This document shows, piece after piece, positions 1 to 60,031 of a DNA stretch of 64,000 bases. The notes below the pieces were generated by a model, which ran no database searches, was not told the origin of the DNA, and was given only the letters and a program-made list of their open reading frames with translations. Source of the stretch: Acidobacteriota bacterium. Its GTDB lineage: Bacteria > Acidobacteriota > Thermoanaerobaculia > Multivoradales > UBA5704. The position numbers and the translations under genes were made by a program. Each line of letters begins with the position of its first letter. The first letter of the stretch is position 1. The DNA lies in contig JBDTZG010000014.1 of assembly GCA_040005235.1 (NCBI GenBank), forward strand, positions 42,206 to 106,205, in the 5' to 3' direction.

Positions 1-4
1 AGCC

Positions 5-3000
5 TTGCTGGCTCTCTTCGGTTTCCACCACATCGTCGGCGATGGCTGGTCCATGGGATTGATGGTCCGCGAGATCGGGGCGCTCTACGCCGCCTTTTGC
101 CGCGGAAAAGGATCGCCGTTGACGGCTCTGCCGCTGAGCTATCGGGACTATGCGGCTTGGCAGCGGGAATGGCTGCGCGGGGAGGTGCTGGAGCGCGAGA
201 TCGCCGTTTGGCGAAGCCGCCTGAGCGGCGCTCCCGCGGTACTGGAGCTACCTGCGGATCGCCTTCGTGGCATTGCGGCCGGCTCCCGAGGAGCGGCGCT
301 CCCGTTCGTATTGGACGCCAAGGTCGGCGCGAGCCTTGCCGGCCTCGGGCGACGGGAAGGAGCGACGCTGTTCATGGCGCTCCTGGCCGGCTTTCAGACG
401 CTGCTTGCCCGCTACACCGGGGAGACCCGGATTCCGGTAGGCGTACCGGTGGCCGGTCGCCATCAAGTCGAGACCGAAGAGCTGATCGGGCTCTTCGTCA
501 ATACCCTCGTCCACTGCGGCAACCTCGACGAAGCCCCCACGTTCAGCGAGCTCCTCCAACGGGTCCGGAACGAAGCCCTGGAGGCGTGGGCGCACCAGCA
601 CCTGCCGTTCGAAAAACTTGTCAGCGCGCTCCAGCCCGAGAGGAACCTGGGCAGTACGCCGTTGTTCCAGGTTCTGTTCGCGCTGCAGAACGCCCCTCTC
701 CCCGAATTGGCGCTTCCCGGCCTGAGCGTGGAGCTCGTCGAAATACCTCGCGAATCCACCAAGTTCGATTTGAGTTTGGTGCTTGCCGAACGGCGCGGTG
801 AGATCGTGGGTTGGGTGGAATACAGCACCGACCTCTTCGACCGCGTGCGAATCGAACGATTGGCCGGGCATCTGCGCACGCTGTATCAGGCGGTTGGTTT
901 GGATGCGGGCAGGTCGGTGTCCGATCTTCCCTTGCTCGCTCCGGCGGAACGATCGCAGCTCGTCGACGAGTGGAACAACACCGGCGCGCCGGCCGGAGCG
1001 GACGGTCTACTGCATGCCCTGTTTGAAGATCAGGTTGCGCGGACACCGGAGGCCGTAGCTCTTGTATCCGGGCAGGAACGGCTCACCTATTCCGACCTCG
1101 ACGGACGAGCCGATCGTCTAGCGTCCTGGCTGCGGCGCCACGCCGTCGGCCCCGAGACCCGAGTTGCTGTTCTCCTCGAGCGAACGGTGGAGATGGTCGC
1201 AGCTCTCCTGGCGATCTTGAAAGCCGGCGGCGCTTACGTGCCTCTCGATCCGAGCTATCCGGATGAGCGGTTGGCAATGATGGCGGAGGATTCCGGGTTT
1301 ACTGCGGTGGTCACCCAAAGCTCTCTGGTGACGCGGCTCCCGAGGTCGGTCGCCGATCTTCCCGTCGCCCGAATCGATGCCGACCGTGAGGAGATCGACC
1401 GTGAATCGGGGCGGAATCGCATCTCCACCGTCGTGCCGCGGAATCTGGCTTACGTGATCTTCACCTCCGGCTCTACCGGCCGTCCGAAGGGGGTGGCCAT
1501 CGAGCACCGCAGCGCGGTGGCGATGGTGCATTGGGCGCGCGGCGTTTTCTCCGCCGGTGAGCTCGAGGGTGTTCTGGCTTCGACCTCGATTTCTTTTGAC
1601 CTTTCGGTGTTCGAAATCTTCGCCACCCTTTCCTGGGGAGGCAAGGTGGTCTTGGCGGGCAACGTCTTGGACCTGCCGCTTCTACCGGCCGCCGCCGAGG
1701 TTCGCCTGATCAATACCGTTCCTTCCGCCATTTCCGAGCTGCTTGCCGGCGGTGGCCTGCCGAAGTCGGTTCGCACGGTCAATCTCGCGGGAGAGGAGCT
1801 GCCTCTGCCTTTGGTCGACCGCCTTTTCGCCGCCGGCGTCGAGCGGGTCTATAACTTGTACGGGCCTTCCGAGGATACGACCTACTCCACCTTCGCCGGG
1901 ATGACCCCGGGCTCCTCCCAAGCACCCGCAATCGGGCGACCGATCATCGGCACGCAGAGCTACCTGCTGGATTCCGGCCTGCAGCCGGCTCCGCTGGGGG
2001 TTCTGGGCGAATTGTTCCTCGGTGGAGCGGGGCTTGCCCGGGGATATCTCGGGCGGCCGGACCTTACGGCTGCCCGCTTCCTGCCGGATCCTTTCGGATC
2101 GACGGCCGGCGGTCGGCTCTACCGTACCGGAGACCTCTGTGCCTACCGTGCCAACGGCAAACTTGAGTTCCGGGGGCGTACCGATCATCAGACCAAAATT
2201 CGTGGTTTCCGGATCGAGCTCGGCGAGATCGAATCGGTACTGCTGGCCCAGAGGGGCGTTCACGATTCCGTAGTAGTGGCCCGCGAGCACCCGGCCGGCG
2301 GCAAGCAACTGGTGGCGTATGTCGTCCTGAACCCGGAGGATGAGACCAGAGGCACAGCCGCGATGGACCGGCTTCGCCATTCGATCGAACGTTTCCTGCC
2401 GGCTCACATGGTGCCTTCTGCCTTCGTCAGCCTGCCACAGTTGCCGCGCACCCCGAACGGAAAGGTGAATCGCTCGGCACTTCCCATGCCCGAGCGAGGC
2501 TCGGCCGCCCGCGCATTCACGAAGCCCGCTTCGGCGGCTGAAGAGAGCATGACGCGGCTGTGGGCTGACTTGCTCAAGATTTCGCCGGTGGGAACCGAGG
2601 CCGACTTTTTCGATCTGGGAGGCCACTCGCTTCTCGCGGCGCGTCTGGTCCATAGGATTCGCGACGCCTTCGGCGTGGCCCTCCCCCTGCGGGCGGTGTT
2701 CGAAGCCCCGGTGCTCGCCGACCTCGTCGTGCAGGTCGAAGCGCTGCGCGGGCAAGGTGGGAAGGGGCCGGCCGTTCGCCTGCGGCAGCGAGATCGGGAG
2801 GGGACGGCCCCTCTCACTTTTGCCCAAGAGCGGCTTTGGTTCCTCGAACGATTCGATCAGGGGCGCTCCGCTTTGAACCTGCCGGTGGACCTGGAGATCC
2901 GCGGTTCGCTCCATTTCGTCGCCTTGAAGCGGAGCTTGTCGGAAGTGGTGCGTCGCCATGAAGTGCTGCGATCGGTGTTCCTGAATGTCGAGGGGAGCGG

Positions 3001-6000
3001 GTGTCAGAGAGTCATGGCTCCGGCGCCTCTGCTGTTGCCCCGGGTCGACCTGAAGGGATTGGCGCCGGACTTTCGCCAGGACGAGTGCTCCCGTCTGGTC
3101 TCCGGCGAGGCGCTACGGCCCTTCAATCTGGAAAAGGGTCCGCCGTTGCGCGCCCTGCTCGTTTCACTCGGCGGTCGGCTGCAAGTCTTGGGACTCACGC
3201 TTCACCATATCGTCGCCGACGGATGGTCCATCGGCACGCTGGTGCACGAGATGTCGGAGCTCTACCAGGCGTTTTCATCGGGCCGCGCCCTGCAGCTCCC
3301 CGAGTTGGCGGTGCAGTACGCGAGCTTTGCCGAGTGGCAGCGCTCCGAGGAATCCGCCGAGCTTTTTGGCCGACAGCTCGCTTATTGGCGAGAACGCCTT
3401 GGCGGGGCACCCCCGAGCGTCGACCTTCCGACGGACCGTTTGCGGCCTTCGGTCCAGACCTATCGCGGCGCGCGTTGCACTCTGGTCTTGGAGCGCGAGC
3501 TCGCCGAGGGGCTCATTGCGGTCGGTCAGGCGCGCCATGCGACCTTGTTCATGACCCTGCTCGCGGCGTGGAAGGTACTCCTTTTTCGTTTCAGCGGTCA
3601 GACCGACCTGGTTGTCGGGACTCCTTTTGCCGGCCGCGTCAGCGTCGATCTGGAAGGGCTGATCGGCCTGTTCCTCAACTCGCTCGCTCTGCGCACCGAC
3701 CTGTCGGGCAACCCTTCATTCAGCGAGCTTTTGGATCGGGTGCGCGAGACGGCTCTGGGTGCTTACGCCAACGAGGACGTTCCCTTTGAGAAGGTCCTTG
3801 CGGAGCTGCGGCCGGAGCGCGATCTGAGCCGCACTCCGATCTTCCAAATCTTGTTCAACATGCTCAATTTTGAGGTGGCGGAGGTTCGCCTGCCCGATTT
3901 GGAGTTGCGCCTTCTCGCGACGCCGGAGCTGCCTTCGAAATTCGATCTTACGGTTTACGCCGCGGAGCGACCGGAAGGGATTCTGCTCACCCTGGTCTAC
4001 AACGCGGACCTCTTCGACGGCCCCCGGATGACCGAGGCTCTGCGGCAGTTCCGGCTCCTCCTTTGCGGCATCGTCGCCGACCCGCAGATGCGGATCGATC
4101 GGTTTTCGCTGGTTAGCCAGGACGCAGCGGCGATTCTGCCGGATCCCCGGGCCACTCTGGACGCCACCTGGTACGGTCCGGTACACCAGGTCTTCAGCCG
4201 CCGGGCCGCAGACGTTCCGGATGCCGCGGCGATCCTCGATCCGCAGGGCACGATGAGCTACGGCGAGCTCGATCGGCGCAGCAACCGTTTGGCACGTTCC
4301 CTGGTCGAGGGCGGCCTCCGGACCGGCGACGCGGTGGCCGTCTACGCCCATCGTAGCTCGCCGATCGTGTGCGCGGTCCTGGCCATCATGAAGGCCGGTG
4401 GAGCGTTCGTAATTCTGGATCCGGCTTACCCGGCGCAGCGCATCATCGAGCTCATCGAAGTGGCCCAACCGCGCGCTTGGATGGAAATGACGGCCGCCGG
4501 CAACTTGGCGCCGGAGCTCGAGGAATATGTCTCCGCGAGATCCTGGTGTCCGAGGGTGCGGCTTCCCCCGGTGCGGGATACGACGCTCGCATGGGAGCAA
4601 GCATCGTCCGAGCCGCTACGGATCGAGGTGGGAAAAGACGACGTTGCCTATGTCGCCTTCACCTCGGGTTCTACCGGAATCCCCAAGGGTGTGCAGGGAC
4701 GCCATGGTTCTTTGTCTCACTTCGTGCCTTGGCAGCAAAGCCACTTCGGCCTGGACGCTTCCGATCGGTTCTGCATGCTTTCGGGGATCGCTCACGATCC
4801 TCTACAGCGGGACATTTTCACGCCGCTGCAAATCGGAGCTTCGATCGTCATTCCGGATCCCGGCGAAATGCTTGCTTCCGGCCGGCTTGCGGAGTGGCTG
4901 CAGCGCGAAGGAGTAACCGTCGCCCATCTCACCCCGGCCATGGGGCAGGTGATTGTCCAGGCAAAGGCGGGGACCGTTTTGGTTTCCTTGCGGTACTCGT
5001 TTCTGGTGGGTGACGTGTTGACCCGCCGAGACGCCGCACGGTTGCAGCACCTGGCCCCCCGGATGACCTGTGTCAACTACTTTGGCTCGACCGAGACCCA
5101 GCGTGCGGTGGGCTTTCACGTCGTTCCAAACGTGGTGGAAGCGAGCCTTGCGGGGGAAGTGAGCCAAGAGGTACTGCCTCTTGGGAGAGGTATCCGGGAC
5201 GTTCAACTCCTCGTGTTGAACGCCAACGACCAACTCGCGGGAATCAGCGAAGTCGGCGAGATCTGTGTGCGAAGTCCGCATCTGGCACGCGGCTACCTGG
5301 GCGATTCCGAGCTGACTTCGCGCAAGTTCGTCCCCAACCCTTTCACCGGTGCGTCCGAAGACCGCCTCTACCGCACCGGCGATCACGGCCGCTATCTGGC
5401 GGACGGAGAAGTTGGGTTCCTCGGTCGGGCCGATCAGCAGGTCAAGGTTCGAGGTTTCCGGGTCGAGCTCGGCGAGATCCAGGCGGTCCTTGGGCGTCAC
5501 TCCGGAGTCCGCGACGTAGTGGTGCTGCCGTGGAAGGACGGAACAGGGGCGACAAGATTGGCAGCCTACGCGGTGCCGAACCCGGGTGTCGATCTCGATA
5601 CCGGCGAGCTGCGGAGCTTTCTCCAGGACCGCTTGGCGGCGTACATGGTCCCCTCGGTCTTCCTGATTCTCGACCGCCTGCCGATGACCCCCAATGGCAA
5701 GCTCGACCGGCGCTCGCTTCCCGATCCTCTCACCGCACGACGTGGTGAGCAGGAGTATGTCCAACCGAGGACCCAAGTCGAGATGACGATCGCCGACATC
5801 TGGCGCAAGGTACTCGAGGTGGACAAGATCAGCGCTTTCGACAATTTCTTCGACCTTGGTGGTCACTCGTTGTTGCTTCTCCAGGCCCATAGCGAGCTGG
5901 AGAAGCGGCTGAGACTTCAGATCGCGGTGGTTGACCTTTTCAGGTACCCCACGGTCAACGCGCTGGCCAAGGCCTTGACCCAGGACCCGGGTCCTCCGGA

Positions 6001-6088
6001 CGAAACGCAACTCGATCGACGCGATCGAGCCACCCGCAGGTGGCAAGGGATCGAAGAACGCAAGAAAGGGCTAAGGCGGCAAAGATGA
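5..6088 (+). CDS. NRPS, 5'-truncated: (C)-A(Ala)-T-C-A(Aad/Glu-like)-T
   Basis: The frame is open from the window edge and begins inside a C domain (HHIVGDG at ~26). A1 has YVIFTSGSTGRPKG and code DLFNNALTYK (Ala). T has GGHS (~2620) and the second C has HHIVADG (~3203). A2 has LSGIAHDPLQRD (~4781) and code ~DPRHFVYRAK. The last T has GGHS (~5858). Confidence 0.95.
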   Translation: MLALFGFHHIVGDGWSMGLMVREIGALYAAFCRGKGSPLTALPLSYRDYAAWQREWLRGEVLEREIAVWRSRLSGAPAVLELPADRLRGIAAGSRGAALPFVLDAKVGASLAGLGRREGATLFMALLAGFQTLLARYTGETRIPVGVPVAGRHQVETEELIGLFVNTLVHCGNLDEAPTFSELLQRVRNEALEAWAHQHLPFEKLVSALQPERNLGSTPLFQVLFALQNAPLPELALPGLSVELVEIPRESTKFDLSLVLAERRGEIVGWVEYSTDLFDRVRIERLAGHLRTLYQAVGLDAGRSVSDLPLLAPAERSQLVDEWNNTGAPAGADGLLHALFEDQVARTPEAVALVSGQERLTYSDLDGRADRLASWLRRHAVGPETRVAVLLERTVEMVAALLAILKAGGAYVPLDPSYPDERLAMMAEDSGFTAVVTQSSLVTRLPRSVADLPVARIDADREEIDRESGRNRISTVVPRNLAYVIFTSGSTGRPKGVAIEHRSAVAMVHWARGVFSAGELEGVLASTSISFDLSVFEIFATLSWGGKVVLAGNVLDLPLLPAAAEVRLINTVPSAISELLAGGGLPKSVRTVNLAGEELPLPLVDRLFAAGVERVYNLYGPSEDTTYSTFAGMTPGSSQAPAIGRPIIGTQSYLLDSGLQPAPLGVLGELFLGGAGLARGYLGRPDLTAARFLPDPFGSTAGGRLYRTGDLCAYRANGKLEFRGRTDHQTKIRGFRIELGEIESVLLAQRGVHDSVVVAREHPAGGKQLVAYVVLNPEDETRGTAAMDRLRHSIERFLPAHMVPSAFVSLPQLPRTPNGKVNRSALPMPERGSAARAFTKPASAAEESMTRLWADLLKISPVGTEADFFDLGGHSLLAARLVHRIRDAFGVALPLRAVFEAPVLADLVVQVEALRGQGGKGPAVRLRQRDREGTAPLTFAQERLWFLERFDQGRSALNLPVDLEIRGSLHFVALKRSLSEVVRRHEVLRSVFLNVEGSGCQRVMAPAPLLLPRVDLKGLAPDFRQDECSRLVSGEALRPFNLEKGPPLRALLVSLGGRLQVLGLTLHHIVADGWSIGTLVHEMSELYQAFSSGRALQLPELAVQYASFAEWQRSEESAELFGRQLAYWRERLGGAPPSVDLPTDRLRPSVQTYRGARCTLVLERELAEGLIAVGQARHATLFMTLLAAWKVLLFRFSGQTDLVVGTPFAGRVSVDLEGLIGLFLNSLALRTDLSGNPSFSELLDRVRETALGAYANEDVPFEKVLAELRPERDLSRTPIFQILFNMLNFEVAEVRLPDLELRLLATPELPSKFDLTVYAAERPEGILLTLVYNADLFDGPRMTEALRQFRLLLCGIVADPQMRIDRFSLVSQDAAAILPDPRATLDATWYGPVHQVFSRRAADVPDAAAILDPQGTMSYGELDRRSNRLARSLVEGGLRTGDAVAVYAHRSSPIVCAVLAIMKAGGAFVILDPAYPAQRIIELIEVAQPRAWMEMTAAGNLAPELEEYVSARSWCPRVRLPPVRDTTLAWEQASSEPLRIEVGKDDVAYVAFTSGSTGIPKGVQGRHGSLSHFVPWQQSHFGLDASDRFCMLSGIAHDPLQRDIFTPLQIGASIVIPDPGEMLASGRLAEWLQREGVTVAHLTPAMGQVIVQAKAGTVLVSLRYSFLVGDVLTRRDAARLQHLAPRMTCVNYFGSTETQRAVGFHVVPNVVEASLAGEVSQEVLPLGRGIRDVQLLVLNANDQLAGISEVGEICVRSPHLARGYLGDSELTSRKFVPNPFTGASEDRLYRTGDHGRYLADGEVGFLGRADQQVKVRGFRVELGEIQAVLGRHSGVRDVVVLPWKDGTGATRLAAYAVPNPGVDLDTGELRSFLQDRLAAYMVPSVFLILDRLPMTPNGKLDRRSLPDPLTARRGEQEYVQPRTQVEMTIADIWRKVLEVDKISAFDNFFDLGGHSLLLLQAHSELEKRLRLQIAVVDLFRYPTVNALAKALTQDPGPPDETQLDRRDRATRRWQGIEERKKGLRRQR

Positions 6089-6103: not shown

Positions 6104-9100
6104 GTGGCTGAAACGGCGGTCGAGAAGGGAATTGCGATCATCGGCCTAGATGGCCGCTTCCCGGGTGCTCGAAACGCAGAAGAGTTGTGGCAGAACCTCT
6201 GCGAAGGTGTCGAATCGCTCTCCCGGTTCTCACAGGAAGAGCTGCGCGCGTCGAGCCCTGACGGGACGCGCCTGGAGGATCCGCGGTTGGTACCTGTTCG
6301 CGGTGTTCTTTCCGAGGTCGAGCTTTTCGACGCCGGCTTTTTCGGGATAAGTCCACGCGAGGCGGCCGCGACCGATCCGCAGCAGCGTGTCTTCATCGAA
6401 TGCGCCTGGACCGCGTTGGAGGACGCCGGCTACGACCCGGGCAACTGCGGAGGCCTTGTCGGCGTTTACGCAGGCTCCGCGCTCAGCTCCTACGCCTGGA
6501 ACAACCTGGGCTCGGACCCGGAGCTCCTGGCATCGCTGGGAGCCCTCCAGCTCGGCATTTTGAACGGCAAGGACCACCTGCCGACCCGAGTTTCCTACCT
6601 TTTGAATCTCACCGGTCCGAGCGTTGCGGTGCAGACGGCCTGCTCGACGTCCTTGGTGGCCGTACACATGGCCTGCCTTGCCTTGCTCAACTACGAGTGC
6701 GACATGGCGCTGGCGGGAGGCGTCAGCATCGCGGTGCCGCAAAAGGCAGGCTATCTGTTCGAAGAGGGGGGAATCTTGTCGCCGGACGGGCACTGTCGCG
6801 CTTTCGACGCCGCTGCCCATGGCACGGTGATGGGCGATGGCGTCGGCATCGTGGTGCTCAAGCGTCTCGATGAGGCAATGGCGGACGGCGACCGTATTCG
6901 CGGGGTGATCCTCGGTTCGGCAATCAACAATGACGGCGGAGGAAAGGTTGGCTACACCGCTCCGGGTTTGGAGGGTCAGGCGGAGGTCATCGCGGCGGCC
7001 CATGCGGTGGCGGGGATCGACGCAGGAACGATCAGCTATGTGGAGACGCACGGCACCGGCACCCCTTTGGGCGATCCGGTGGAGATTTCGGCCCTGACTC
7101 GCGCCTTCCGAATGAGCACGGACCGTATCGGTTCCTGTTCTATCGGTTCGCTCAAGACCAATATCGGGCACCTCAACACGGCGGCAGGTGTCGCCGGCTT
7201 GATCAAAGCGGTCCTTGCCCTCGAGCACAAGGCGATCCCACCGAGTTTGCACTTCGAGCGGCCCAATCCACGGATCCATTTTGACGACAGCCCCTTCTTC
7301 GTCAACACGCGTTTGACGGAATGGTCGGCCGACGGCGCGCCGCTCCGCGCGGGTGTCAGTTCGTTCGGCATTGGCGGAACCAACGCCCACGTCGTTCTTG
7401 AGGAAGCTCCGGTGCCGGAGGTGTCCGATGACGCGCGGCGCTGGCAATTGTTGGTGATCTCGGCCAAAACCGAGTCCGCCCTTGAAGCGGCGGCCCAGAA
7501 CTTGGCGGAGCACCTCGGCCGGCACCCTGACTTGAAGCTCGCGGACGCTGCCTTCACGTTGCAAGTCGGACGCAACCGCATGGAGCATCGCCAGATCTTG
7601 GTCTGCCGCGATGCCGCGGAAGCGATCCGCGAGCTGACGGCCGGCGAGGACTCGCGGGCCGTGCGGCTGCACGAAGCGGCTCGGGAGCGGCCGGTGGTTT
7701 TCCTCTTCCCGGGGCAAGGTTCACAGTACGTCGGCATGGGACGCGAGCTCTTCGAGCTCGAGCCTCTCTTTAGAGAGCAGGTTGATCTCTGCGCCTCTCA
7801 TCTTTTGCCGCACTTGGGATTCGACATTCGAACGCTCTTCGAGAGCTCAACCGAGGAGTCGCGGGCAGCGGAGGAGCGGCTTCAGGAAACCGCGGTAGCG
7901 CAACCGGCTCTGTTTGTCGTCGAATACTGCCTTGCCCGCCTGTTTGCCGAGTGGGGCATCGAGCCGGAGGCGATGATCGGGCATTCGATCGGGGAGTACG
8001 TCGCCGCCTGTCTTTCCGGGGTCATGAGCCTTCCTGACGCCCTACGTCTGGTGGCGGCCCGGGGTCGCCTCATGGGGGAGTTACCACCCGGCGGGATGAC
8101 CGCGGTTCACCTTTCTGAAGCCCAGGTTAGACATCTTCTACCTGCGGATTTGGAGATCGCGGCGGTCAATGGGCCGACGCTAGTCGTGGTGGCGGGAACC
8201 CTTACCGCCGTGGCGGCTTTTGAAGAAAAGCTGGCTGAGGACGGTGTCGAGCATCGACGGCTCAAGACCTCTCACGCTTTCCACTCCGCGATGATGGAGC
8301 CGATCTTGGAGCCCTTCGCCCGCGTGGTGGCCTCGATCGCGTTGCACGAACCGCAGCGGACCTTCATTTCAAATCTGACCGGACGACCGGCGACCGCCTC
8401 CGAAGTTACGGACCCCAACTATTGGGTCCGCCACTTGCGCGACGAAGTACGTTTCTCCGACGGTGTCGACGAGATATTCCGCGATCCAGGGCGGGTCTTC
8501 CTTGAGATCGGGCCAGGCCGAGCGCTGACCACGATCGTCCGGCAGAATCCTGGCGCGCAGGCCGGGATGACAATCCCCACCATGCGCCCGCAGTCTCGGG
8601 AAGGGTCGGACTTGGCTTGGGCGCTGGAGGCCCTGGGTCGCGCCTGGCTCGCGGGGGTGGCGATCGATTGGCGCGGTTTCCACCACCGCCATCGCCGCTT
8701 GCGGGTGGCGATGCCTGGTTATCCGTTCGAACGGCAACTGCATTGGATCGAGGCGCGTCCTCTCCGACCGTCCGGACCTCTCTCCGCAATTCCGGCAAGG
8801 AGCGCGGACCCCGCGGGCTGGTTCCATGCCCGGACTTGGCGGCGATCGGCAGGACAGGGCTCAGCCGCGACCGAACCGGGCGCCCTCCTACTGTGGGCCG
8901 CGCCCGGCGGTTTGGGCGGTGAAATCCACCGTGAGCTCACCTCGCGCGGCGTTGCGGTGGTGCTCGCCGAGCTTTCGGGCAGTCTGGAGCCTAGTTCCTT
9001 AACCGCCAGCCTTGCGGAAGAGGTCGCCCCACGACGTATCGCTCTGTTGGTGGAGCGTTGTACGCCGGGGCCGGAAGCAGCCGGGGCGCTCGCCCTCCTA

Positions 9101-12100
9101 CTCTCCTCCCTGGCCTCTCGTCCGGAAGGTCGCGATGATTCGCCGGAGCTGATCCTGGTCACCGAATGCGCCGAAGAGGTGGTTGGCAGCGAAGTGACGA
9201 ACGCGGTCCCTAACGACACCCTCGCCACCTTGATGGCAGAGGCCGCTCGGATGCCCGGTCTCCGCTGGCGCTGCGTGGACGTTGATGTCGAAGGAGAAAG
9301 CCCGCGGAGCGACAAGCTCGTCGACGAGTTGCTCGCGCCGGGACCGGCCGGCGTGGGGTCTGTGGTGGCCCTTCGAAACGGCTATCGATGGCTGCCGGCT
9401 TACGAGGTGGTTCACTTGGAGCATCGCGCGGGAGCCATTCGGCCCGGCGGTGGTTATCTGGTGGTGGGCCAGATAGGGGTGGCAAGCCAGTCCGTGCTCG
9501 CCGCGTTCGCGGAGGCGGGCGCACAGGCGCAGCTCATCCCGGCCGATCCGGCCGTAATCCTCGCATCTCCGGCGTTTGCATCCAATCTGCACGGAATCGT
9601 CGTCACGGGCGGTTGGGAGACTCCTGCAGACACTCTCGCGGCGCTCGACGTCGCCCTCGGCGGTCGCGCGCTGGATTTCCGGCTCGTCCTCGCCCCATTC
9701 GCTGCTGGGCAGGAGATCGAAATTGGCGAAACCGTCGCCGAACGGCGGCTTGCCGCAGCGGTTCGCGTCCGTGCCCAAGCCGGTGGTGTCCGCTGGCGGA
9801 TCGCCTCCTGGCGGATCACCTCGAGATCGGGTGATGACCAGGGGCTGACCCCGGGGGAGGCCGCGGAAGCCTTCCTGAGGCTCATCACGTGGCAGGGAGA
9901 GGCTCACCTCGTCGTGGCGCCCGTCGACCCTTCGGTTGCGGTACCCGTCGCCGAACCGCTCTCGTTCGCGGCAGAGCTTAAGCCAACAGGCAAGGGCGGG
10001 TATGTGGCGCCGCGCAACGCGGTAGAACGCGATTTGGCTGCGATCTGGGAGCACTTCCTGGGGATCGCTGCCGTGGGCGTTTTCGACAGTTTTCTCGAGC
10101 TCGGCGGACACTCCTTGCTGGCGACGCGCGTGACTGCGCGGATGCGCGAGGTCTTCGGGGTCGAACTGCCGCTCAGCAGCCTCTTCGAGAGCCCCCACTT
10201 GGCCGCGCTGGCCGTCGAAATCGGTGCGCGCCGAGAATCTCTGGGTGAGCCGTCGTCTGCTGCGCAGAGTCCGGCTTTTCACGCGATTGCCGCCCCGGCG
10301 GATCGTTATGATCCGTTTCCCCTTACCGAGGTGCAGCAAGCTTACTGGATCGGGCGTAGCGCCGGATTTGAGCTGGGGAATGTGGCAGCGCACAGCTACC
10401 TTGAGGCGGAGACTCGGAATCTCGATCTCTCGCGGCTTGAGGCGGCGCTCGATCGGCTCGTAAACCGCCACGAAATGTTGCGGGCGGTCGTAACACGCGA
10501 TGGTCAGCAGCGAATTTTGGCTGAGGTTCCGACTTATCGCATTGAAGTCGATGATCTTCGGGGTATGGCCCCAGAGGCTGCGGAAGCGGTCCTCAAGGAG
10601 ACGCGAGCTCGCCTGGCGCAAGAGGTCGTACCGACCGACCGCTGGCCGCTTTTCGCCGTGCGCGCCTCGCTCCTGGATTCGGGCGCAACTCGCCTGCACA
10701 TCCGACTCGATTACCTGATCGCCGACGCTTGGAGCGCTCGGACTTTGGCACGCGATGTCGGAGCTTTCTACGCCGATCCGACGATTTTCCTGCCGAACCT
10801 CGAGGTCTCGTTCCGAGATTATGTCCTTTGGCTGGAATCCCTGCGCGAAACCGAAGAGCATCGACGAGCCCTCGCCTACTGGCAGGGACGGCTGGAAAAT
10901 CTTCCTCCGGCACCGGATCTACCTCTCGCGGTGAGTCCAACCACCCTGCTGAAGCCGCGCTTCGAGCGTCGGCGCGCCGCCCTGCCGGCCTTCCATTGGG
11001 GGGAGCTCAAGCGCCGCTTCGCACAGGCGGACCTCGCGCCTTCCGCAGCGCTGGCGGCGGTATTTGCAGAGATTCTCACCGGTTGGAGCAAGAGTCCTCG
11101 TTTCACCATCAATCTGACGCTGTTCAATCGTCGGCCGGTGCATGCCCAAGTTGGGGAGTTGGTCGGCGATTTTACCTCTCTCACCTTGTTGGCGGTGGAG
11201 AGCGAACCAGGCGGCGGATTCCTGTCACGAGCCCGCGCCTTACAGCGGCAACTGTGGCGGGACCTTGACCACCAATCGGTGAGCGCCGTTCAGGTGTTAC
11301 GCGACCTTTCCCGAGAACGCGGCGAGCTGGCGCGAGGATCGATGCCGGTCGTCTTTACCAGCACTTTGAGCATGACCACCGGCACTTCCGCGGCTGAGAC
11401 GGAGGCGAGCGTTGCCGACCCTGTCCAGGTGGTCTACAGCCTCAACCAGGGACCGCAGGTCTGGATCGACCATCAGGTCTCGGAGCGTCAAGGGGAGCTC
11501 GTTTTCAATTGGGATGTCGTGGAGGGCCTTTTCCCACCGGGGCTGATCGACGCGATGTTCGAGGCCTATCGTGCGCTTTTGGAGACGCTCGCCCAGGCCG
11601 ATGAAGCTTGGGGGGTTGTCCCGTTGCCCTTGGTGTCAACCGCCCAGCTCGAACAGCGTGCTGCGGTAAATGCCACCGAGGCACCCGTCACCGACGATCT
11701 CCTTCACACCTTGTTCCGCGCGCAGGCAGCCCGTCGGCCCGAGGCGACGGCGGTAGTCGCCGGAGATCGCCGATTGACCTATGGCGAGCTCGCCGCACGT
11801 GCCGGCTGGCTAGGCCGTCGGCTGCGAGATTTGGGAGCACGGCCCAACACGCTGATTGCGGTGGCGATGGAAAAGGGTTGGGAACAGGTGGCTGCGGTGC
11901 TCGGCGTGCTCGAGGCCGGTGCCGCCTATCTGCCGGTCGATCCGTCGCTGCCCTCCGACCGGCTGGGATATCTGCTCGCCCATGGTGAGGTTCGAATCGC
12001 CCTCACGCAGTCCTGGCTGGAACATCGTCTCGACTGGCCACCCGGAATCGTGCGCATCTGCGTCGACCGTGAGCCCGCGAAAGAGGGACTCGAACCGCTG

Positions 12101-15100
12101 GAGATTTCCCAGGCACCCGGCGACTTGGCCTACGTTCTCTACACCTCCGGATCGACCGGCTTGCCCAAGGGCGTAATGATCGACCACCGCGGCGCCGTGA
12201 ACACTATTCTCGACGTCAATCGCCGCTTTGCGCTGGGCCCCAACGACGCAGTTCTCGCCGTGTCATCCTTGAGCTTCGATCTTTCGGTCTTTGACATCTT
12301 TGGTCTCCTCGCCGCAGGAGGCAAGGTGATCGTGCCGGAGCCCGGGACCAGCCGGGATGCCGAACGATGGGTGGAGCTTCTGCACCGCGAAGGCGTGACG
12401 CTGTGGAATACGGTGCCTGCGCTCTTTGAGATGCTGGTGGAGCACGTGTCGGGTCGGCCGGATCTCCTACCGCCGCCCCTTCGGTTTGCGTTGCTCTCCG
12501 GCGACTGGATTCCTCTGTCGCTTCCCGATCGCGCCCGTCAGGCTCTTCCGGGTATCGAGGTGGTCAGCCTGGGAGGTGCCACGGAAGCGTCGATCTGGTC
12601 CATTCTCTATCCCGTCGCCGAAGTTGCGGGCGATTGGAAAAGCATCCCGTACGGCCGGCCGATGCTCAATCAGTCCTTTTCTGTCCTCGACGGCCAGCTC
12701 GAGGCGCGGCCGGTGTGGGTTCCGGGGCAACTGTACATCGGCGGTATCGGTCTGGCGCTCGGCTACTGGCGCGACGAGGAAAGGACGAGAGCCAGCTTCA
12801 TCCGTCATCCACGCACCGGCGAACGCCTGTACCGCACCGGCGATCTCGGTCGATACCTGCCCGATGCAACGATCGAGTTCCTGGGGCGCGAGGACTTCCA
12901 GGTCAAGATCCATGGCTATCGCATCGAGCTTGGAGAGATCGAGGCCACTCTTTCTCAACACCCGGCGGTGCGCGAATGCGTGGTCGCCGCGCCGGGCTCA
13001 CCACAAGGTGCCCGCCGTTTGGTGGCCTACGTGGTTCCAGGCTCCGACCCTGTCGCTGTGAAGAGCGCGAAGACCGAGTCGGCACAGGTGGCGCAGTGGC
13101 AGGCGCTGTTCGACGCCACGTACGGTGCGTCAACCGGTAGAGAGGCCACCTTCGACATCGCCGGGTGGAAAAGTAGCTATGGCGGCGATATACCGCCGGA
13201 GGAGATGCAGCGCTGGGTTTCTTCCACCGTGGAGCGCATTCTGGCCCTGCGGCCCCGGCGCGTACTGGAGATCGGCTGCGGTACGGGCCTGCTTCTGTTT
13301 CGGATCGCCCCTTTCTGCGAGCATTACCGAGGCACCGATCTTTCGGCGGAGGCCCTGGCGTCGATCCATCGCCAGATCGCGGCAGCGGGTATCAAGCTGC
13401 CCCAAATACAGCTTGCTCAATCCGCTGCGGACGACTTCACCGGCGTCGCGTCCGGCGAATTTGATTTGGTGATCATCAACTCGGTCATTCAGTATTTCCC
13501 GGATGTTGGATATCTGCTTCGGGTGGTCGAGGGAGCGGCAGGAGTTGTCTCACCCGGCGGCCATATCTTCGTGGGCGATGTACGTGACTTGACGACGCTT
13601 CCCGCCTTTTACGCCTCCATCGAGCAGGCGCTGTCACTGGTCGACCTCGGACAGGAAGAGCTGCGGCGAAGGATCGAGCAGCGTACGGCGAAGGAAGAGG
13701 AATTGGTGGTCAGCCCCGATTTCTTCAGGGCACTTGCAGACCGGCTGCCGGCGGTTCAGGGTGCGGTGATGGAGCCGAAGCGCGGGCGCGACCGCAATGA
13801 GTTGGTCAACTATCGGTACGACGTGACGCTCTTGATCGACCCTCCGGCCGCGCCTCGCCAAGTCCGCTGGCAGGACTGGCAGGACGTCGGCGGAACCCTT
13901 GCCGCTCTGTGCGACCGGTGGCGCGCCTCAGAAGGCGAGCCGATAGGCGTTCGCGGCATACCGAGCTCACGGCTCACCGGGGATCTCGCCCGGTGGGCCG
14001 ATCCCGCACGAGGACCGGACGGATCATCGGCCGGGGCCGTCGAAGCTGTCGATCCGGAAGATTTGTTCCATCTTGGCCAGGAGCTCCGTTGCGGTACGAC
14101 CTTGACCGTTTGCGGCGCGGACCGCCCCGGTGCTCTCGATCTCGTCCTTTGGCCCCTCACAGCATTGGACTCGTCGACGCCTTTTTGGCTCCCGGCCGAA
14201 CCGCATTTCGGAGAGCCGAGGTGGAAGTTCTGGGCCAACGATCCATCGAGGCCGCAGCTGGCACATACCTTGGTTCCAAAGCTGACCGCCTTCCTGCGCG
14301 AAAAGTTGCCCGACTACATGGTGCCGGGCGTTTTCGTGATCCTCGACGGTTTACCGCTCACCGCCAATGGCAAGGTTGACCGCAGCGCCTTGCCCGCGCC
14401 CGGCATCGATCCCGAGGCTGCGCCCGGACTCCACGTCGCTCCGCGAACGCCCACCGAGCAAGCGGTGGCGGAAATCTGGTCTCAGGTGCTGCGCGCGGAG
14501 CGGGTGGGTGTCGAGGACAACTTCTTCGACCTGGGAGGCCATTCGCTCCTCGCGATCCAGGTGCTTTCTCGACTGCGTCAGCAACTGAAAGTCGAAGTTC
14601 CGGTTCAAACCCTTTTCGAGTCCGCAACGGTCGCCGGTCTGTCGAGAGAGATCGACGTTCTCCTGCAGCGATCGATTCCGGAAGACGGCGCGCGTCTCCA
14701 GCCTGTATCGCGCGATCAACGACTGCCGCTTTCCTTCTCACAAAAGCGGCTTTGGTTTCTCGATCGCTTAGTTCCGGGGAATGCTTTCTACAACATTCCA
14801 GCGGGCGTTCGAATGAAAGGAAAAGCGGACCTACGGTCTCTCGCCGCGGCGATCAACGAGATCGTCCGCCGCCATGAAACCCTGCGAACGACGTTTGCCG
14901 AAGCGGATGGCGAACCCTTCCAGGTGATCGCACCGGGGATTCACGTGGCGGTGCCTCACGTCGATCTGCGGAATCTGTCCGATGCAGCAGGAGAGGCGGA
15001 GATCGTGCGCCTGATGAACGAGGAGGCAAAACGCCCGTTCGACCTCGCGGCCGGACCCATGCTGCGCGCCTTCACCCTCTGGCGGGCGGAGAACGACTTC

Positions 15101-18100
15101 GTCCTCCTTCTCACGTTGCATCACATCGTTTCCGACGGCTGGTCGATGGGCGTCTTCTATCGCGAGCTTCAGGCTCTCTACTCGGCATTTTCCGCGGGTC
15201 GGCCTTCTCCTCTGGCCCCTCTGCCCATCCAGTACGCCGATTTCGCCTACTGGCAGAATCAAGCTCTGCAAGGGGAGCTGCGCGAGGCTCACCTGTCTTT
15301 CTGGCGCGAGCAGCTCGGCGGCTTGCCGTTATTGGAGCTTCCCACCGACCGCCCAAGACCACGTTTCGAGAGCTTCCGCGGCTCCATGGTGTCGGCCCTG
15401 CTCGATCGTACCCTCGTGAGCTCTCTAAAGGCGATGAGCCAGCGCTGCGAGGCCACGTTGTTCATGACGATCCTCGCCGGGTTTAAGGTCTTCTTGGCGC
15501 GATACTCACGGCAGTGGGAAATTGTCGCGGGCTCGGCGGCTGCCGCGCGCAATCGCCCTGAGCTCGAAGGGTTGATCGGATTCTTCCTCAATATGCTGGT
15601 CCTGCGCACCGACCTGTCCGGCAAACCCAGCTTCGAGGCGGCGGTGCGGCGGGTTCGCCAGGTCACCTTGGACGCCTACTCTCATCAGGACCTGCCTTTC
15701 GAAATTTTGGTGGACGAGTTGCAGCCGGAACGCGATCCGAGCCGGAACCCGCTCTGTCAAGTTCTACTGATGTACCAGAACTACCCCGTAGAAGAGCGCG
15801 GGCTCGAGGGCGATTCCCTGAGGCTCATGAAGGTCGATAGCGGTACAGCCAAGTTTGATCTCGTCCTGTTCGTAGACGATGTGGAGCAGGGCTTGCAGGT
15901 AAAGCTGGAGTTCAACACCGATCTTTTCGACCGGACGACGGCGCGGCGGGCGCTCGGGCAATTTGAGATCCTGTTGCGTTCGGCGATGGCGACTCCGGAG
16001 CGGTCGATCACCGATCTGCCGATGATCGACGACGTGGAGAGGCATCAGGTTCTGACCGAATGGAACGACACGGAACATCGATACGCGACGGCGGAACGTA
16101 TCGAAGAGCTATTCGAACGCGCGGCGGCTCGCCAGCCGAATGCCGTGGCAGTGGTGTTCGAAGACGTCGTGCTCACGTACCGACAGCTCGACGAACTGGC
16201 CAACCAGTTGGCTTGGCGGCTGACAGCTCTCGGCGCGGGCCCAGGAAGCTACATAGCGGTCTATTTGGAACGATCGGCGGCAATGATCCCGGCCCTGCTC
16301 GGTATCCTCAAGGCAGGCGGAGCCTATGTTCCCTTGGAAGTGACCTACCCGGAGGCGCGGATCGAATGGATCCTGGATCGACTGGACATCCGCTTCGCGG
16401 TCACCCAGGCGAGTCTGTCGGCGGCCATCGGCAACCTTGGAGCGGGTTCCTTAAAGACGGTATGCATTGATGACGCCTTGGTGCTCGCCACGCACCCGCG
16501 GAACCGTCCGGTTCTACCGCTCATTGAAAATGGCATGGCCTACGTCATCTTCACTTCAGGTTCCACCGGTACACCCAAGGGCGTCATGGTGCGCCATCGT
16601 GCCGTTGTCAATCTAATCGACTGGATTGGCCGCGAACACCGGATCGGTTCGCGGGATCGGGTGCTTTTCGTCACATCCCTTTGCTTCGACCTTTCGGTCT
16701 ACGACGTCTTTGGTCTCCTGGCGGCGGGTGGATCGATTCGCGTGGTCTCTGCGGCGGACGTGCGAGATCCGCAACGCCTGCTACAGATTCTGATGACCGA
16801 GCCCATCACCTTTTGGGATTCGGCTCCGGCCACCTTGCAGCAGTTGGTCCCTTACTTTCCGGTCACGCCACACGAGATCGATCTGCGTCTGGTCTTTTTG
16901 AGCGGAGATTGGATTCCCGTTGGGCTTCCGGACGACGTGCGCGCGAGCTTCCCCGGCACTCAGGTGATCAGCCTTGGCGGTGCTACGGAGGCGACGGTGT
17001 GGTCCAACTCTTTTCCCATAGGAGAGGTCGAGGCGCATTGGGTGAGCATTCCCTACGGTCGTCCGATGCAGAACGCCCGCTACCACGCCCTGGACTCCGA
17101 TTTCGAGCCGGCGCCTATCGGCGTTCCGGGCGATCTTTACATTGCGGGCGACTGTCTCAGCTCGGGCTATGAGGACGCCGCACTCAGCGCCGAGAAATAT
17201 CTGCCGGACCCTTTCTCCGGGCAGCCCGGGGAACGCATCTACAAGACGGGCGACCTGGTACGTTACCGGCCCGACGGAAACCTGGAGTTCCTCGGCCGCG
17301 CCGATCAGCAGGTCAAGGTGCGCGGATTCCGGATTGAGCTGGGGGAGATCGAAAGTTTGTTGGCACGGCATCCGGTGGTTGCGGACGCCGTAGTCGTGGT
17401 GCGCGAGGACGAGCCCGGCGATCAGCGCTTGGTGGCCTATGCCGTTCCGCGACAGGGGGAAGCGGTGTACGCGACCTCGGAGGAAGACTGGCAGCTACGC
17501 GTCGCCGAGTGGCAGACGATCTACGACAACATCTACGGCGATTCTTCCGCCGTGCTCGATCCTACTTTTAACATTTCCGGGTGGCGAAGCAGCTACACCG
17601 GGCGACCGCTTCCTGCCGAGGAGATGCTGGAGTGGGTGGACGATACGGTCTCCCGCATCCTCGCGCTGCGGCCACGGCGGGTGCTCGAGATCGGTTGCGG
17701 CACCGGACTGCTTCTCTTCCGCGTGGCGCCGCACTGCCGCTCTTATTGGGCCACCGACTTCTCACGCACCGCGCTGCAGGCGATCCGTCGAACCCTCGGC
17801 AGTCCGGGACTGGAACTGCCTCAGGTCCGCCTATTCGAGCGCTTGGCCGACGATTTCGAGGGCCTTCAGGCGGGTTCGTTCGATCTGGTGCTCATCAACT
17901 CGGTGATCCAGTACTTCCCGAGCCTGGATTATCTCAGCAAGGTGGTGTCCGGGGCCGCGTCCCTCCTTTCACCCGGGGGACATCTTTTCGTGGGCGACGT
18001 GCGGAGCCTTCCGCTTCTCTCGACGTTCCATACCTCGGTGCAACTCTCTCAGGCGCCCCCGGATCTTTCCACGGAGACTCTGCGCCAAAACGTGCGAGAG

Positions 18101-21100
18101 GGTCTTACCCAGGAAGAGGAATTGGTCGTTGCCCCGGCCTTCTTTACCGAGATCGAACAGCGGGTACCCGGCTTAGGTTCAACCCGTATCCTGCTCAAGC
18201 GCGGCGCCATCGACAACGAGCTTAATCGCTATCGCTATGATGTCATCTGCGCTGCGGACCACGGTGAAGCTCAGGCTCCGGAGCCGTGTCATTGGTTGGC
18301 TTGGAAGGAGGAGGCCTGGACGCTTCCCGGCATCGCGCAGTTTTTGAAAGAGACAACCCCAAGCGTGATCGGTTTTTTCGGCGTGCCGAACGCGCGCCTG
18401 GCCGGAGACGCGGAGCTGGAGAGGCTCCTCTCCGATCCGGCCGGACCGGAGACGGTCGGCCAACTTCGAATCGCCATCGCGGCGAGGCCGGAGGTTGGAG
18501 TGGACCCCTCGGAGCTCTGGTCCTCGGGTGAGGTCTTGGGATTTTCCGTCGAAGTCTCCTGGTCGTCGGCGGGCAAAGAGTACTTCGACGTGGTCTTCCG
18601 CGACTCCAGACTTGCGATCCTTCCGGTGTGTCCTCCGGATCGGGATCAGACGACGGAAGAGCCGCAGGTCCTTGCCAACGATCCCCTTCAGGCGCGGGTA
18701 CAGCAGCGACTGGCGTCCGCTCTCCGTGCCTGGCTGCAACAGCACCTTCCGCCCTACATGATGCCGTCAGATTTCGTGCTGTTGCAATCCGTGCCGCTGA
18801 CACCTAACGGTAAGCTCGATCGAAATTCGCTGCCGATTCCGACACGACGGTCCGGGGGAGCGATCGGCGTACCTCGCAATCCCTTGGAGCAAAAGCTGGC
18901 TGAGATTTGGGCCGAAGTGCTGGGTGTCGAGCAAGTGGGTGTGTTTGACAATTTCTTCGAGCTTGGAGGCCATTCCCTGCTTGCCACGCAGGTGATGGCT
19001 CGAGTAGCCCAAGCGGTAGGTGAGGAGGTTCCCCTCCGCTCCTTGTTCGAAAACCCAACGGTCGCCGGCCTTGCGGCGAGCTTCGGGCGTTGGCAGAGTG
19101 CGGCGGGTGTGGCGACACTTCCACGGATCGAACCGATTTCCCGCGTTCGGCCTCTCGCACTCTCGTACTCCCAACTCCGCCTCTGGCTGCTGGACCGTTT
19201 GGCTCCGGGCAATGTCGCCTACAGCATTCCGACCGCGCTTCGGATGGTCGGAAGTCTTGCGCCGGCGATCCTCGCCGCGAGTTTGAGCGAGATCGTTCGT
19301 CGCCATGAGACATTGCGGACGACCTTTTTCCTCGATGGCGATGAACCGGTGCAGGTCATCGCGTCGGCGCGACCCTTGCCTCTTCCCATCATCGATCTGA
19401 GCGCACTGCCCGCCGAACACTTGGATACCTGCGCCGGCGGACTCAAAGCCTGGCATGCCGCCCGTCCCTTCGACCTGGAGGTAGGCCCGCTGCTACGAGT
19501 CTGCCTGCTACGTTTCAGCGAACGCGAACACTGGGCGCTCGCCAACCTGCATCACATCGTGGGTGATGGTTGGTCGGTGGGGCTCCTCATTCGCGAGCTG
19601 GCAGCTCTTTACGAGGCGGCGATCGCCGGCCGGCCATCGCCGCTGCCGCCGCTACCGGTCCAATATGCGGACTACGCTCACTGGCAGCGTCAGAGGGTGC
19701 GCGGAGCCCGCCTCTCGACTCTCCTCGACTACTGGCGGCAGCGGCTGGAGGGTGCGCCGGCCGTTCTCGATCTGCCCATGGATCGGCCTCGACCGGAGGT
19801 GCAGACATACGATGGAAACCTAATGTCGGTTCTGGTGCCGACAGGGGTCGTGGCGGAGTTGCGAGCCGTCATTCGCTCCGAATCGGCGACCTTGTTCATG
19901 GCGTTCCTCGCGCTGTTCGGTACCTTGCTCCGCCGCACGACCCGATCTGAAAACTTTGTGATCGGTACGGCCATCGCAGGACGAGCTCAGGTGGAGATCG
20001 AGAGCCTCATCGGTTTCTTCGTGAACACCCTGGCCTTGCCCTTGGATGTTTCAGGCGATCCTGAGTTTTCCGTCCTCCTGCGCCAGGCGAGAGAGACGGC
20101 CCTGGGCGCTATTGCGAATCAAGAGCTGCCCTTCGAGAAACTCGTCGACGAGCTCCAGCCCGAGCGCTCGCTGAGCCATTCGCCGATTTTTCAGGTCGCC
20201 CTTGTGATTCAAAACACCGCCTGGTCGAGCCTTGACCTTCCCGGGTTGACCCTCAGCCAAGTGAGCTCCGGAGCGCCAACCGCGAAATACGATCTGACTC
20301 TCCTCGCCGAAGAGCGCGGCGACAAACTCGCGGTCGTGTTCGAGTACAACTCAGGACTGTTCGACCGCACGACCATCGCCCGCCTGCTGTCGCACCTCAT
20401 GATCCTGCTCAAGGGCGCTGCCGCGGATCCCCTCCAACGCCTATCCGAATTGAGCTTGATGTCCGCTGCCGAGACGCATCAACTTTTCTGCGAGTGGAAC
20501 GACTCGCAGGTGGCGCGGCCGGAAGCAGCGTCCTGCATCCATCAACTCTTTGCCGCCCAAACGCAGCGCACTCCCGAGGCGGTGGCTGTCCGGGTTGGCG
20601 ACGCGGCGCTCAGCTATCGTGAGCTCGATCTGCGTACCAACCGGCTTGCCCGGCACCTGCGCGCGCGAGGCGTCGGGGTCGAGTCGCGGATCGGCGTATT
20701 CATCGATCGCTCGTTCGAAATGCCGGTGGCCCTGTTGGCAATCCTCAAAGCGGGTGGTGCCTATCTGCCGTTGGACCCGACGATTCCGGGTCCGCGCCTG
20801 GCCCAGATGCTGAGCGACGGTGGCGTCGAGCTCGGGCTGACCGCTGCGCGATTCATGGCCACCCTCCCCCCGGAGACGCCAAGACCGATCGACTGGATTG
20901 CCATCGATTCCGATGGGCCGGAGTTTAGCGACGATCCATTGGTCGGCGGTGCGGTGCCGGAGAACTTGGCTTACGTGATCTACACCTCGGGATCGACGGG
21001 CCTGCCTAAAGGCGTGATGATTCCCCACGCAGCGATCGCGAACCGACTTCTTTGGATGCAAGAGCGATTTCCCTTAAGCCCGTCGGACCGGGTACTGCAG

Positions 21101-59205: not shown

Positions 59206-59979
59206 ATGCAACTCGATTCCGTTCGAGCCGTGGTGACCGGCGCGGCCCGGGGGTTGGGCTGGCACTTCGCACTGGAGCTGCTGCGGGCGGGAGCCCAGGT
59301 GGCGGCGGGAGACATCGACATCCCCGGCCTTCGCAGGCTCAAAGTCGCGGCCGAGGGACTGCCGGGAAACCTATTCGCCTCGTCTCTCGACGTGGTCGAC
59401 GAGCTCGCCGTTCAGTCGTTCATCGATCAGGCTTGGAGCCGACTCGGGGGGCTCAATACCCTGATCAACAACGCCGGCATCCTGCGCGATGGCTTGCTGG
59501 TGCGAAGGGACGCGGAAGGAAGCGGCGGCAAGCTCCCGACCTCGCAATGGTCGAAGGTCTTGGAGGTGAACCTTACGGGGCCTTTCCGGGTCGCCCGTGA
59601 GTTCGTCGCGCGTCTGTTGAACGAGCGGATCGAAGCTGGAGTCATCGTCAACATCTCTTCCCTGGCGCGCGCCGGAAACCCCGGGCAGTCGAGCTACTCG
59701 GCATCGAAGGGGGGGCTCGATGCGGCAACTCGAACCTGGGCCTTGGAGCTGGCTCCCTTCGGAATTCGCGTGGGAGGGGTTGCTCCCGGGGTCATCGACA
59801 CACCGATCCTGGAAGGGATCTCCGAAGCGGCCCTGGCACGTTTGAAGGAGGCCATTCCTCTCGGGCGTTTGGGTCGGCCGGACGAGGTCTGGCTCGCCGT
59901 CAAATTCATCATCGAGTGTGAGTTCTTTTCCGGTCGCATCATCGAAGTGGACGGTGGCGCAGCCATGGGCGGCGCGTGA
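59206..59979 (+). CDS. Short-chain dehydrogenase/reductase (FabG/3-oxoacyl-ACP reductase-like)
   Basis: TGAARGLG Rossmann motif, NNAGILRD, NISS, catalytic YSASK, PGVIDT, IPLGRLG, VDGG. 257 aa, starting 3 nt after the TE gene. Confidence 0.92.
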   Translation: MQLDSVRAVVTGAARGLGWHFALELLRAGAQVAAGDIDIPGLRRLKVAAEGLPGNLFASSLDVVDELAVQSFIDQAWSRLGGLNTLINNAGILRDGLLVRRDAEGSGGKLPTSQWSKVLEVNLTGPFRVAREFVARLLNERIEAGVIVNISSLARAGNPGQSSYSASKGGLDAATRTWALELAPFGIRVGGVAPGVIDTPILEGISEAALARLKEAIPLGRLGRPDEVWLAVKFIIECEFFSGRIIEVDGGAAMGGA

Positions 59980-60015
59980 TCCGCCTTGCGGCTGCATCAA
60001 GGCCACCCAACCAAC

Positions 60016-60021
60016 AGGAGG
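60016..60021 (+). promoter_or_regulatory. Shine-Dalgarno for the carbamoyltransferase
   Basis: AGGAGG 10 nt before ATG 60032 (MYVLGI). Confidence 0.7.
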
Positions 60022-60031
60022 TTCAGTCTTA

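Follow-up and report, generated by a model that had tools for sequence, protein, structure and literature searches.

A Lys2-lineage adenylation domain ahead of a polyketide synthase in an acidobacterial assembly line, and its possible loading of an acidic amino acid through the distal carboxyl group

Results

The last NRPS module and its hand-off

The window analysed here, a stretch of 64,000 nucleotides, makes up the end of a 106-kb contig (JBDTZG010000014.1, positions 42,206 to 106,205, assembly GCA_040005235.1) in the 6.2-Mb genome of an Acidobacteriota bacterium, and it opens inside a gene for a nonribosomal peptide synthetase (NRPS). The part of the NRPS that lies in the window comprises the end of a condensation (C) domain, an adenylation (A) and a carrier (T) domain, and then a full C-A-T module, the last of the protein; the A domain of this last module (the focal domain in what follows) is our subject (Table 1). 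The NRPS reading frame stops at 6088, and the next open reading frame (ORF; 6104-25105, encoding 6333 residues) opens with a ketosynthase (KS) and an acyltransferase (AT) domain; the original prediction for this DNA, that the module hands its product to a polyketide synthase (PKS), thus agrees with the gene order. At this NRPS-to-PKS interface the carrier serine, the Cys-His-His triad of the KS, and an AT with GHSxG and HAFH are all present; GHSIG with HAFH we take to mark a malonyl-type AT. The amine acylated by the last module's C domain would be that of the residue which the focal domain loads.

Table 1. Coordinates of the features in the window.
Feature	Position	Strand	Remarks
NRPS, 3' part	2-6088	+	2028 residues of a 5412-residue gene product; gene starts upstream of the window; five C-A-T modules in the full gene
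Condensation domain of the last module (HHIVADG)	2798-4129	+	PF00668, residues 933-1376
Lys2-type adenylation domain (focal domain)	4184-5746	+	residues 1395-1915 of the translation of the window's first ORF; code DPRHFVYRAK
Peptide FCMLSGIAHDPLQRDIFTPL	4769-4828	+	frame 2
Peptide VAHLTPAMGQ	4919-4948	+	frame 2
Peptide FLVGDVLTRRD	5000-5032	+	frame 2
Peptide GSTETQRAV	5084-5110	+	frame 2
Peptide VRSPHLARGY	5267-5296	+	frame 2
Carrier (T) domain, LGGHS	5786-5929	+	serine codon within 5855-5869; basic C-terminal tail to 6085
Ketosynthase	6128-7258	+	TACSTS, HGTGT, NIGH present; Cys-His-His residues kept
Acyltransferase	7697-8650	+	GHSIG, HAFH
465-residue region without Pfam match, between AT and acyl carrier protein	8654-10048	+	
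Acyl carrier protein of the PKS module, LGGHS	10031-10213	+	
Heterocyclisation-type condensation domain	10316-11596	+	PLTEVQQAYWIGR, DYLIADAWS
Free-standing short-chain dehydrogenase	59206-59979	+	just past the thioesterase-ending gene
Carbamoyltransferase	59918-62056		follows the thioesterase-ending gene

The focal domain is an NRPS amino acid adenylation domain by its score on the generic model TIGR01733 (393.2 bits, cut-off 317.4), by its PF00501 and PF13193 matches, and by its core motifs A3, A5, A7, A8 and A10, which are intact (FTSGSTGIPKG, NYFGSTE, YRTGD, GRADQQVKVRGFRVELGEI, PNGKLDR). The five peptides that had been named for positions 4180-5720 are all found in frame 2 of the forward strand, and the usual FDxSxxE pattern is indeed replaced, the A4 motif reading AHDPLQRD. 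The substrate-pocket code was taken from an alignment with LgrA and from a MAFFT alignment of the A domains of the genome; both give DPRHFVYRAK, the same ten residues that had been guessed earlier. Asp235 and Lys517 are both kept, and two arginines stand in the pocket, at code positions 239 and 330. The Glu/Asp-type A domains of the same genome carry very different codes, for example DLTKIGHVGK and DAKDLGVVDI, which we take to be the canonical glutamate and aspartate codes. The A-T didomain is small and, to judge from its residues, looks intact.

Likeness to Lys2

Among NCBIfam models the best for the focal domain is TIGR03443, fungal L-aminoadipate-semialdehyde dehydrogenase (585.6 bits, E 1.8e-175, profile positions 200-751), well above its 393.2 bits on TIGR01733. 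Five ordinary A domains of the window, taken as controls, show the opposite pattern, with 408-449 bits on TIGR01733, whereas four of the five have no match to TIGR03443 at E <= 1e-60 and the fifth scores 221 bits. The score of the focal domain is also the highest of six bacterial clade members tested (see below), the other five lying at 358-510 bits. This resemblance is far beyond chance.

Metagenomes were scanned for a clade-specific pattern, HDPL[QL]RD[LIV]F, in combination with [ATS]FTSGSTGxP, a motif general to A domains. Besides bacterial modules, the scan gave genes in which the match is broken by gaps of about 45-60 bases, the pattern expected of short introns. Three large exons of these Lys2 genes, from soil metagenomes, reach 1359-1415 bits on TIGR03443 (cut-off 1030.1); the order of domains in these loci is A-T-reductase, with a thioester reductase of the NAD_binding_4/TIGR01746 type. 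Fifteen such split-match genes were recovered (intron-bearing ones lie at L150, L153, L171, L172, L175, L180-L183 and L186), and all read DPRHFVMRAK at every code position covered by their match. The focal domain is identical to this code at nine of ten positions, including both arginines and His278; only position 322 differs, with Y in place of the M of Lys2. With the profile score and the placement in the tree, this upholds the original description of the domain as Lys2-like. The focal domain is nevertheless not a Lys2 enzyme but an NRPS A domain of the Lys2 lineage, because its 585.6 bits fall short of the equivalog cut-off of the family and because it is followed by a carrier domain only, the ORF stopping about 110 residues past the A domain without a thioester reductase.

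Matches that are weak (12-21 bits) but consistent link the N-terminal regions of the metagenomic Lys2 genes to the window's C domain, in its C-terminal half, in keeping with the published view of the ADA region of Lys2 as the remnant of a condensation domain. Searched with the focal domain, the PDB gave no Lys2 A domain, its best match being LgrA (about 238 bits per domain), and the ESM Atlas gave generic A-domain clusters only.

A large bacterial clade of DPR-type domains

Relatives were collected from 268 large NRPS proteins, gathered in two database searches and holding about 1200 A-domain matches. Scores against the focal domain are bimodal: ordinary domains lie at 100-399 bits (all but nine below 300), and about 147 domains lie at 400 bits or above. 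An R-type subgroup was defined by at least 400 bits in phmmer, separation from ordinary A domains, and arginine at code positions 239 and 330; the focal domain falls into it, but since the group was built around that very domain, its membership holds by construction. The commonest codes in the clade are DPRHFVYRAK (22 domains, the code of the focal domain), DPRHFGFQAK (18), DPRHLVLRAK (13) and NHRHFGFRAK (12), beside many minor ones, and positions 278, 299, 301, 322 and 330 vary (as in DPRNFVLRAK, DPRHLVLRAK, DPRHFGFQAK and NHRHFGFRAK). The likeness extends to the preceding domain: scored against the window's C domain, C domains in front of A domains of this type have a median of 395 bits (n=138), those in front of ordinary A domains 285 bits (n=823).

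The named sources of the relatives are mostly uncultured Thermoanaerobaculia, Longimicrobium, Pyrinomonadaceae and Ktedonobacteraceae, with a few cyanobacteria. Five of 401 genomes of the window's phylum carry the type at E <= 1e-110 (the window's own genome counted, three candidates scored per genome), as do four of 201 cyanobacterial genomes at 440 bits or more. The domain type is thus uncommon in whole-genome samples, yet not rare, being a large bacterial clade; with some 147 relatives in 268 proteins, the focal domain is less unusual than had been implied. A literature search on the codes and on Lys2-like bacterial modules, with supplementary tables (for example PARAS, PMC13126170, and PMC12283262) outside its scope, found no description of the clade.

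A scan of genome contigs with the single protein has three clade members among the 80 matches listed, the rest being ordinary A domains. A 5377-residue protein found by a library HMMER search (P0128) ends in a C-A-T module whose A domain scores 780 bits and has the code DPRHFVLRAK; it is probably the counterpart of the window's NRPS. Within the genome itself, phmmer on ORFs of at least 300 residues gives 82 A-domain matches, some of them fragments, of which three domains are Lys2-like and all others score at most 278.5 bits. The second R-type domain of the genome, on contig C118, has the code DPRHLVLRAK and is split into matches of 314.7 and 219.9 bits. The third Lys2-like domain is Q-type (DPRHFGFQA-, 375 bits); it lies on contig C84 (9-1322, L088) at the contig edge, at the end of an open frame of 7176 residues.

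Some members of the clade lack Asp235 and have S or N instead (NHRHFGFRAK, SHRHFGFRAK, SLRHFAFRAK); 19 of 19 stand in C-A-T modules that end their protein, and in three loci (L115, L121, L127) the next ORF begins with a C domain. In cyanobacteria, six domains (L194-L196, L201-L203) with the codes DVRHFALLAK, DARHFSLLVK and DARHFSLMVK reach 326-344 bits, a level intermediate between ordinary domains and the Lys2-like clade; four stand in C-A-T-thioesterase (TE) order, one in C-A-T-C and one in C-A-T, and they may be a further xRH-type group.

Phylogenetic placement

A quick IQ-TREE run was made on 87 query-anchored rows, with Lys2 genes included and ACV synthetase, McyE and Zmn16 A1 left out. 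DPR-type domains are split from 14 ordinary A domains with an SH-aLRT of 97. A set of 39 rows within the DPR-type clade (SH-aLRT 99) comprises the focal domain, 23 bacterial R-type modules, 14 Lys2 genes and one odd row. As the original prediction had it, the domain joins Lys2, apart from ordinary alpha-carboxyl A domains. The 14 Lys2 genes form one clade with a support of 100; the focal domain sits in a bacterial subclade of 11 rows with a support of 95; and the subclade with S or N for Asp235 falls inside the R-type set. Free-standing A-T-Acyl_transf_3 proteins branch further out, the R-type group being nearer to Lys2, and a metagenomic domain with the code DPRHFALLAK is the most basal DPR branch. 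In an approximately unbiased (AU) test on a 35-row subsample (LG+G4), a grouping of all bacterial DPR-type rows together is not rejected (p-AU 0.637), which is why we make no claim of a Lys2 nested within the bacterial modules.

How often such modules feed a ketosynthase

Flanks were readable at 63 loci, which are interrelated and not independent. The domain after the 41 C-A-T modules of this type is KS in seven, C in 23 and TE in eight, and is not visible in three; after ordinary C-A-T modules of the same loci, KS comes next in two of 78. Since the loci are related to one another, this contrast serves for description only. Of the seven KS cases, six fall in the 11-row subclade of the focal domain, where they make up six of the 11 members. 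The R-type C-A-T module on contig C118 (about 153317-177489, code read from motifs) belongs to another cluster of the same genome, which it starts, and it too is followed by KS-AT-T, at the opening of a 6894-residue protein.

The PKS partner and the rest of the line

The region of 465 residues between the AT and the acyl carrier protein (ACP) can be aligned, at 30% over 312 residues, to an intact ketoreductase (KR) on the same contig, along its linker and structural half; the NADPH motif of the region is decayed (VGQIGVAS against TGGLGGVG in the intact KR), and there is no alignment in the catalytic half. The region is probably an inactive KR remnant. The heterocyclisation domain is followed by a cysteine-like A domain (DLFNLSLIW-) with an inserted methyltransferase.

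A fatty-acyl-AMP ligase, encoded upstream of the window, begins the line; about 19 amino-acid modules follow, and a TE at about 59.2 kb closes it. The line contains a second PKS module, which carries an aminotransferase: the ORF at 37930-44088, in mid-line, has the order KS-AT-ACP-aminotransferase-C, an architecture known also from the iturin and microcystin lines, and a module of this type would make a beta-amino acid. The short-chain dehydrogenase and the carbamoyltransferase that come after the TE-ending gene are likely tailoring enzymes; the former is also a candidate trans-acting ketoreductase. Upstream on the same contig lies a separate NRPS-PKS line (C132:551-18388, L003) of the order KS-AT-T-C-A-T-KS-AT-KR-T, a 497-residue region without Pfam match, and C-A(methyltransferase)-T-TE.

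Discussion

Proposed function

The reading we favour, and to which we give an even chance, is that the focal domain is a working A domain of the Lys2 lineage that activates the distal carboxyl of an acidic amino acid, and that its product is extended by the PKS. The domain would adenylate an alpha-amino dicarboxylic acid at the distal carboxyl and load it onto the carrier domain, arginines 239 and 330 gripping the free alpha-carboxylate; going by the code, L-2-aminoadipate would be the best guess and glutamate the alternative. The upstream C domain would place the lipo-peptidyl chain on the alpha-amine, and the KS of the next protein would accept the thioester, to which one malonyl unit would be added; since the KR of this module has decayed, the beta-keto group would probably stay, before the heterocyclisation module adds a cysteine. 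Retention of the keto group after malonate extension had been foreseen and is plausible for a malonyl-type module with a decayed-looking KR. The amino-keto-diacid that had been expected as product, on the other hand, gives way to a predicted unit that is one residue within a lipopeptide of about 19 residues, not a free diacid.

Loading through the distal carboxyl is suggested by analogy from three sides: Lys2 itself, the DPRH-type domain of the zeamine line, and the relatives that lack Asp235. R-type relatives with S or N in place of this aspartate stand in C-A-T modules, and the amine thus need not bind at 235.

Comparison with known systems

Lys2 is a free-standing ADA-A-T-reductase of lysine synthesis, whereas the focal domain belongs to a multimodular NRPS and has a full C domain in front; the thioester of Lys2 is reduced, that of the focal domain goes to a KS. 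McyE has the order PKS then NRPS, the reverse of the window's; a DPRH-type code is attributed to it in the original prediction. A search of 201 cyanobacterial genomes at E <= 1e-95 gave no McyE-type domain but only Q-type domains of the clade and the intermediate termination modules with D[VA]RH...LL[AV]K.

Lys2-type reductases and ACV synthetase activate aminoadipate non-canonically, at the delta-carboxyl (PMC7884236). In module 1 of ACV synthetase the aminoadipate is thus adenylated as we propose for the focal domain (PMC7884236), but that module serves initiation and has a truncated C-like domain, unlike the elongation module here. In AfcQ and VinN, a pocket arginine holds the alpha-carboxylate during adenylation of the side-chain carboxyl, which is that of aspartate in the VinN/AfcQ type (PMC12186527); these are of a different lineage (related PDB entries score about 150 bits), free-standing and outside C-A-T modules. 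In microcystin, glutamate is joined by its gamma-carboxyl, with a free alpha-carboxyl, near PKS parts (PMC6950048); the side-chain-linked D-Glu that had been adduced for the McyE product is thereby confirmed as a D-gamma-Glu linkage.

Zmn16 A1, of the zeamine/fabclavine NRPS-PKS, shares a DPRH-type code with the focal domain; it reads DPRHLALLAK, and software predicts aminoadipate as its substrate (PMC3547906, Table 2). The prezeamine that was isolated has an N-terminal aspartate joined via its side chain (PMC5811116). Zmn16 A1 differs in being a loading module and in having LLAK at the bottom of the pocket, where the focal domain has RAK. In 36 Xenorhabdus genomes, one Pectobacterium and one Erwinia, searched for the zeamine/fabclavine A1, no domain exceeds 330 bits and no DPRH motif occurs; if the two domains are related, the relation is distant.

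Bacterial A-T-acyltransferase proteins were reported in 2010 as sister to fungal Lys2 (PMC2823734). The A-T-Acyl_transf_3 proteins of our sample belong to the same DPR-type superclade as the focal domain, from which they differ in being Q-type (DPRHFGFQAK), in lacking a C domain, and in being fused to a membrane acyltransferase. Two free-standing examples are L146 (1354-4176) and L157 (3-3581), the latter with a partial C domain in front; a further free-standing protein, L141 (9683-12709), has about 400 C-terminal residues without Pfam match. All three are Q-type DPRHFGFQAK and form their own clade.

Alternative readings

The domain may share the lineage and the acidic substrate (aminoadipate, glutamate or aspartate) and still activate the alpha-carboxyl in the ordinary way, Asp235 binding the alpha-amine and the arginines the side-chain carboxylate; what the PKS extends would in that case be a normal aminoacyl thioester, and a free side-chain acid would be left. 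Asp235 and Lys517 are in place, the module is a standard C-A-T with an HHxxxDG condensation domain in front, and many clade members stand in line, as C-A-T-C (23 of 41) or C-A-T-TE (8 of 41). The only recovered clade members from a family of known chemistry, however, are Lys2 genes, which use the distal carboxyl; the bacterial domain of similar code, that of zeamine, yields a side-chain-linked aspartate (PMC5811116); and close relatives manage without Asp235. Canonical glutamate and aspartate domains of the same genome, as we assign them, moreover have quite different codes. We consider ordinary alpha-carboxyl loading possible, if on the unlikely side. A second alternative reduces the likeness to shared descent, the substrate no longer being an amino dicarboxylic acid but having, for example, a sulfonated, phosphorylated, hydroxylated or amide side chain. 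The variation of clade codes at five pocket positions fits this, as do the three marker families of aminoadipate supply that were not found in the genome, and the free-standing relatives fused to Acyl_transf_3, which point to a different job; yet the agreement of the focal domain with Lys2 at nine of ten code positions, both arginines and His278 among them, and a TIGR03443 score above that of every other bacterial member tested, make such a drift doubtful. That the module is inactive or skipped, with the upstream peptide passing straight to the KS, is highly improbable: nothing specific speaks for it, the core motifs are intact without exception, as is the carrier serine, and the order of such a C-A-T module and then KS recurs in relatives.

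Several points weigh against loading through the distal carboxyl or against details of the proposal. Sequence alone cannot tell which carboxyl is adenylated: the retained Asp235 and a module built like any other C-A-T also fit alpha-carboxyl activation of an acidic amino acid. In the genome, which is 100% complete by marker genes, a search gave no match for lysW and none over the cut-off for LysX and lysine 6-aminotransferase (the saccharopine pathway and piperideine-6-carboxylate dehydrogenase were not part of this search), and the cluster holds no aminoadipate supply gene; aminoadipate is therefore weakened relative to glutamate, which is a live alternative. The link to zeamine runs through a metagenomic domain of similar code, the basal DPRHFALLAK branch, with Zmn16 A1 itself outside the tree, and the KS association comes from loci that are related to one another. 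The free-standing short-chain dehydrogenase, finally, could still reduce the keto group.

Implications

Taken jointly, the observations allow a wider reading, which we put forward tentatively, as a possibility short of a probable one: that a widespread family of Lys2-type NRPS modules, which we know almost exclusively from uncultured Acidobacteriota, Gemmatimonadota and similar bacteria, installs aminoadipate or glutamate through the distal carboxyl, that modules of the focal domain's subclade routinely give PKS-extended 2-amino-oxo-dicarboxylates, and that Lys2, with its C-like ADA region, descends from a bacterial C-A-T module of this kind. If this is true, a free alpha-carboxylate is left on the peptide, and the 2-amino-oxo-dicarboxylate units would be ones that are not known from any natural product. 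Should the distal carboxyl be the one loaded, standard prediction tools would misdraw the backbone of every peptide from these modules, about 147 domains of this kind having come from one protein search alone, and the PKS-feeding subclade would make a building block without known precedent. The clade also provides bacterial relatives that lie closer to fungal Lys2 than do the A-T-acyltransferase proteins of the 2010 report, and these relatives bear on the origin of Lys2 and of its C-like N-terminal region.

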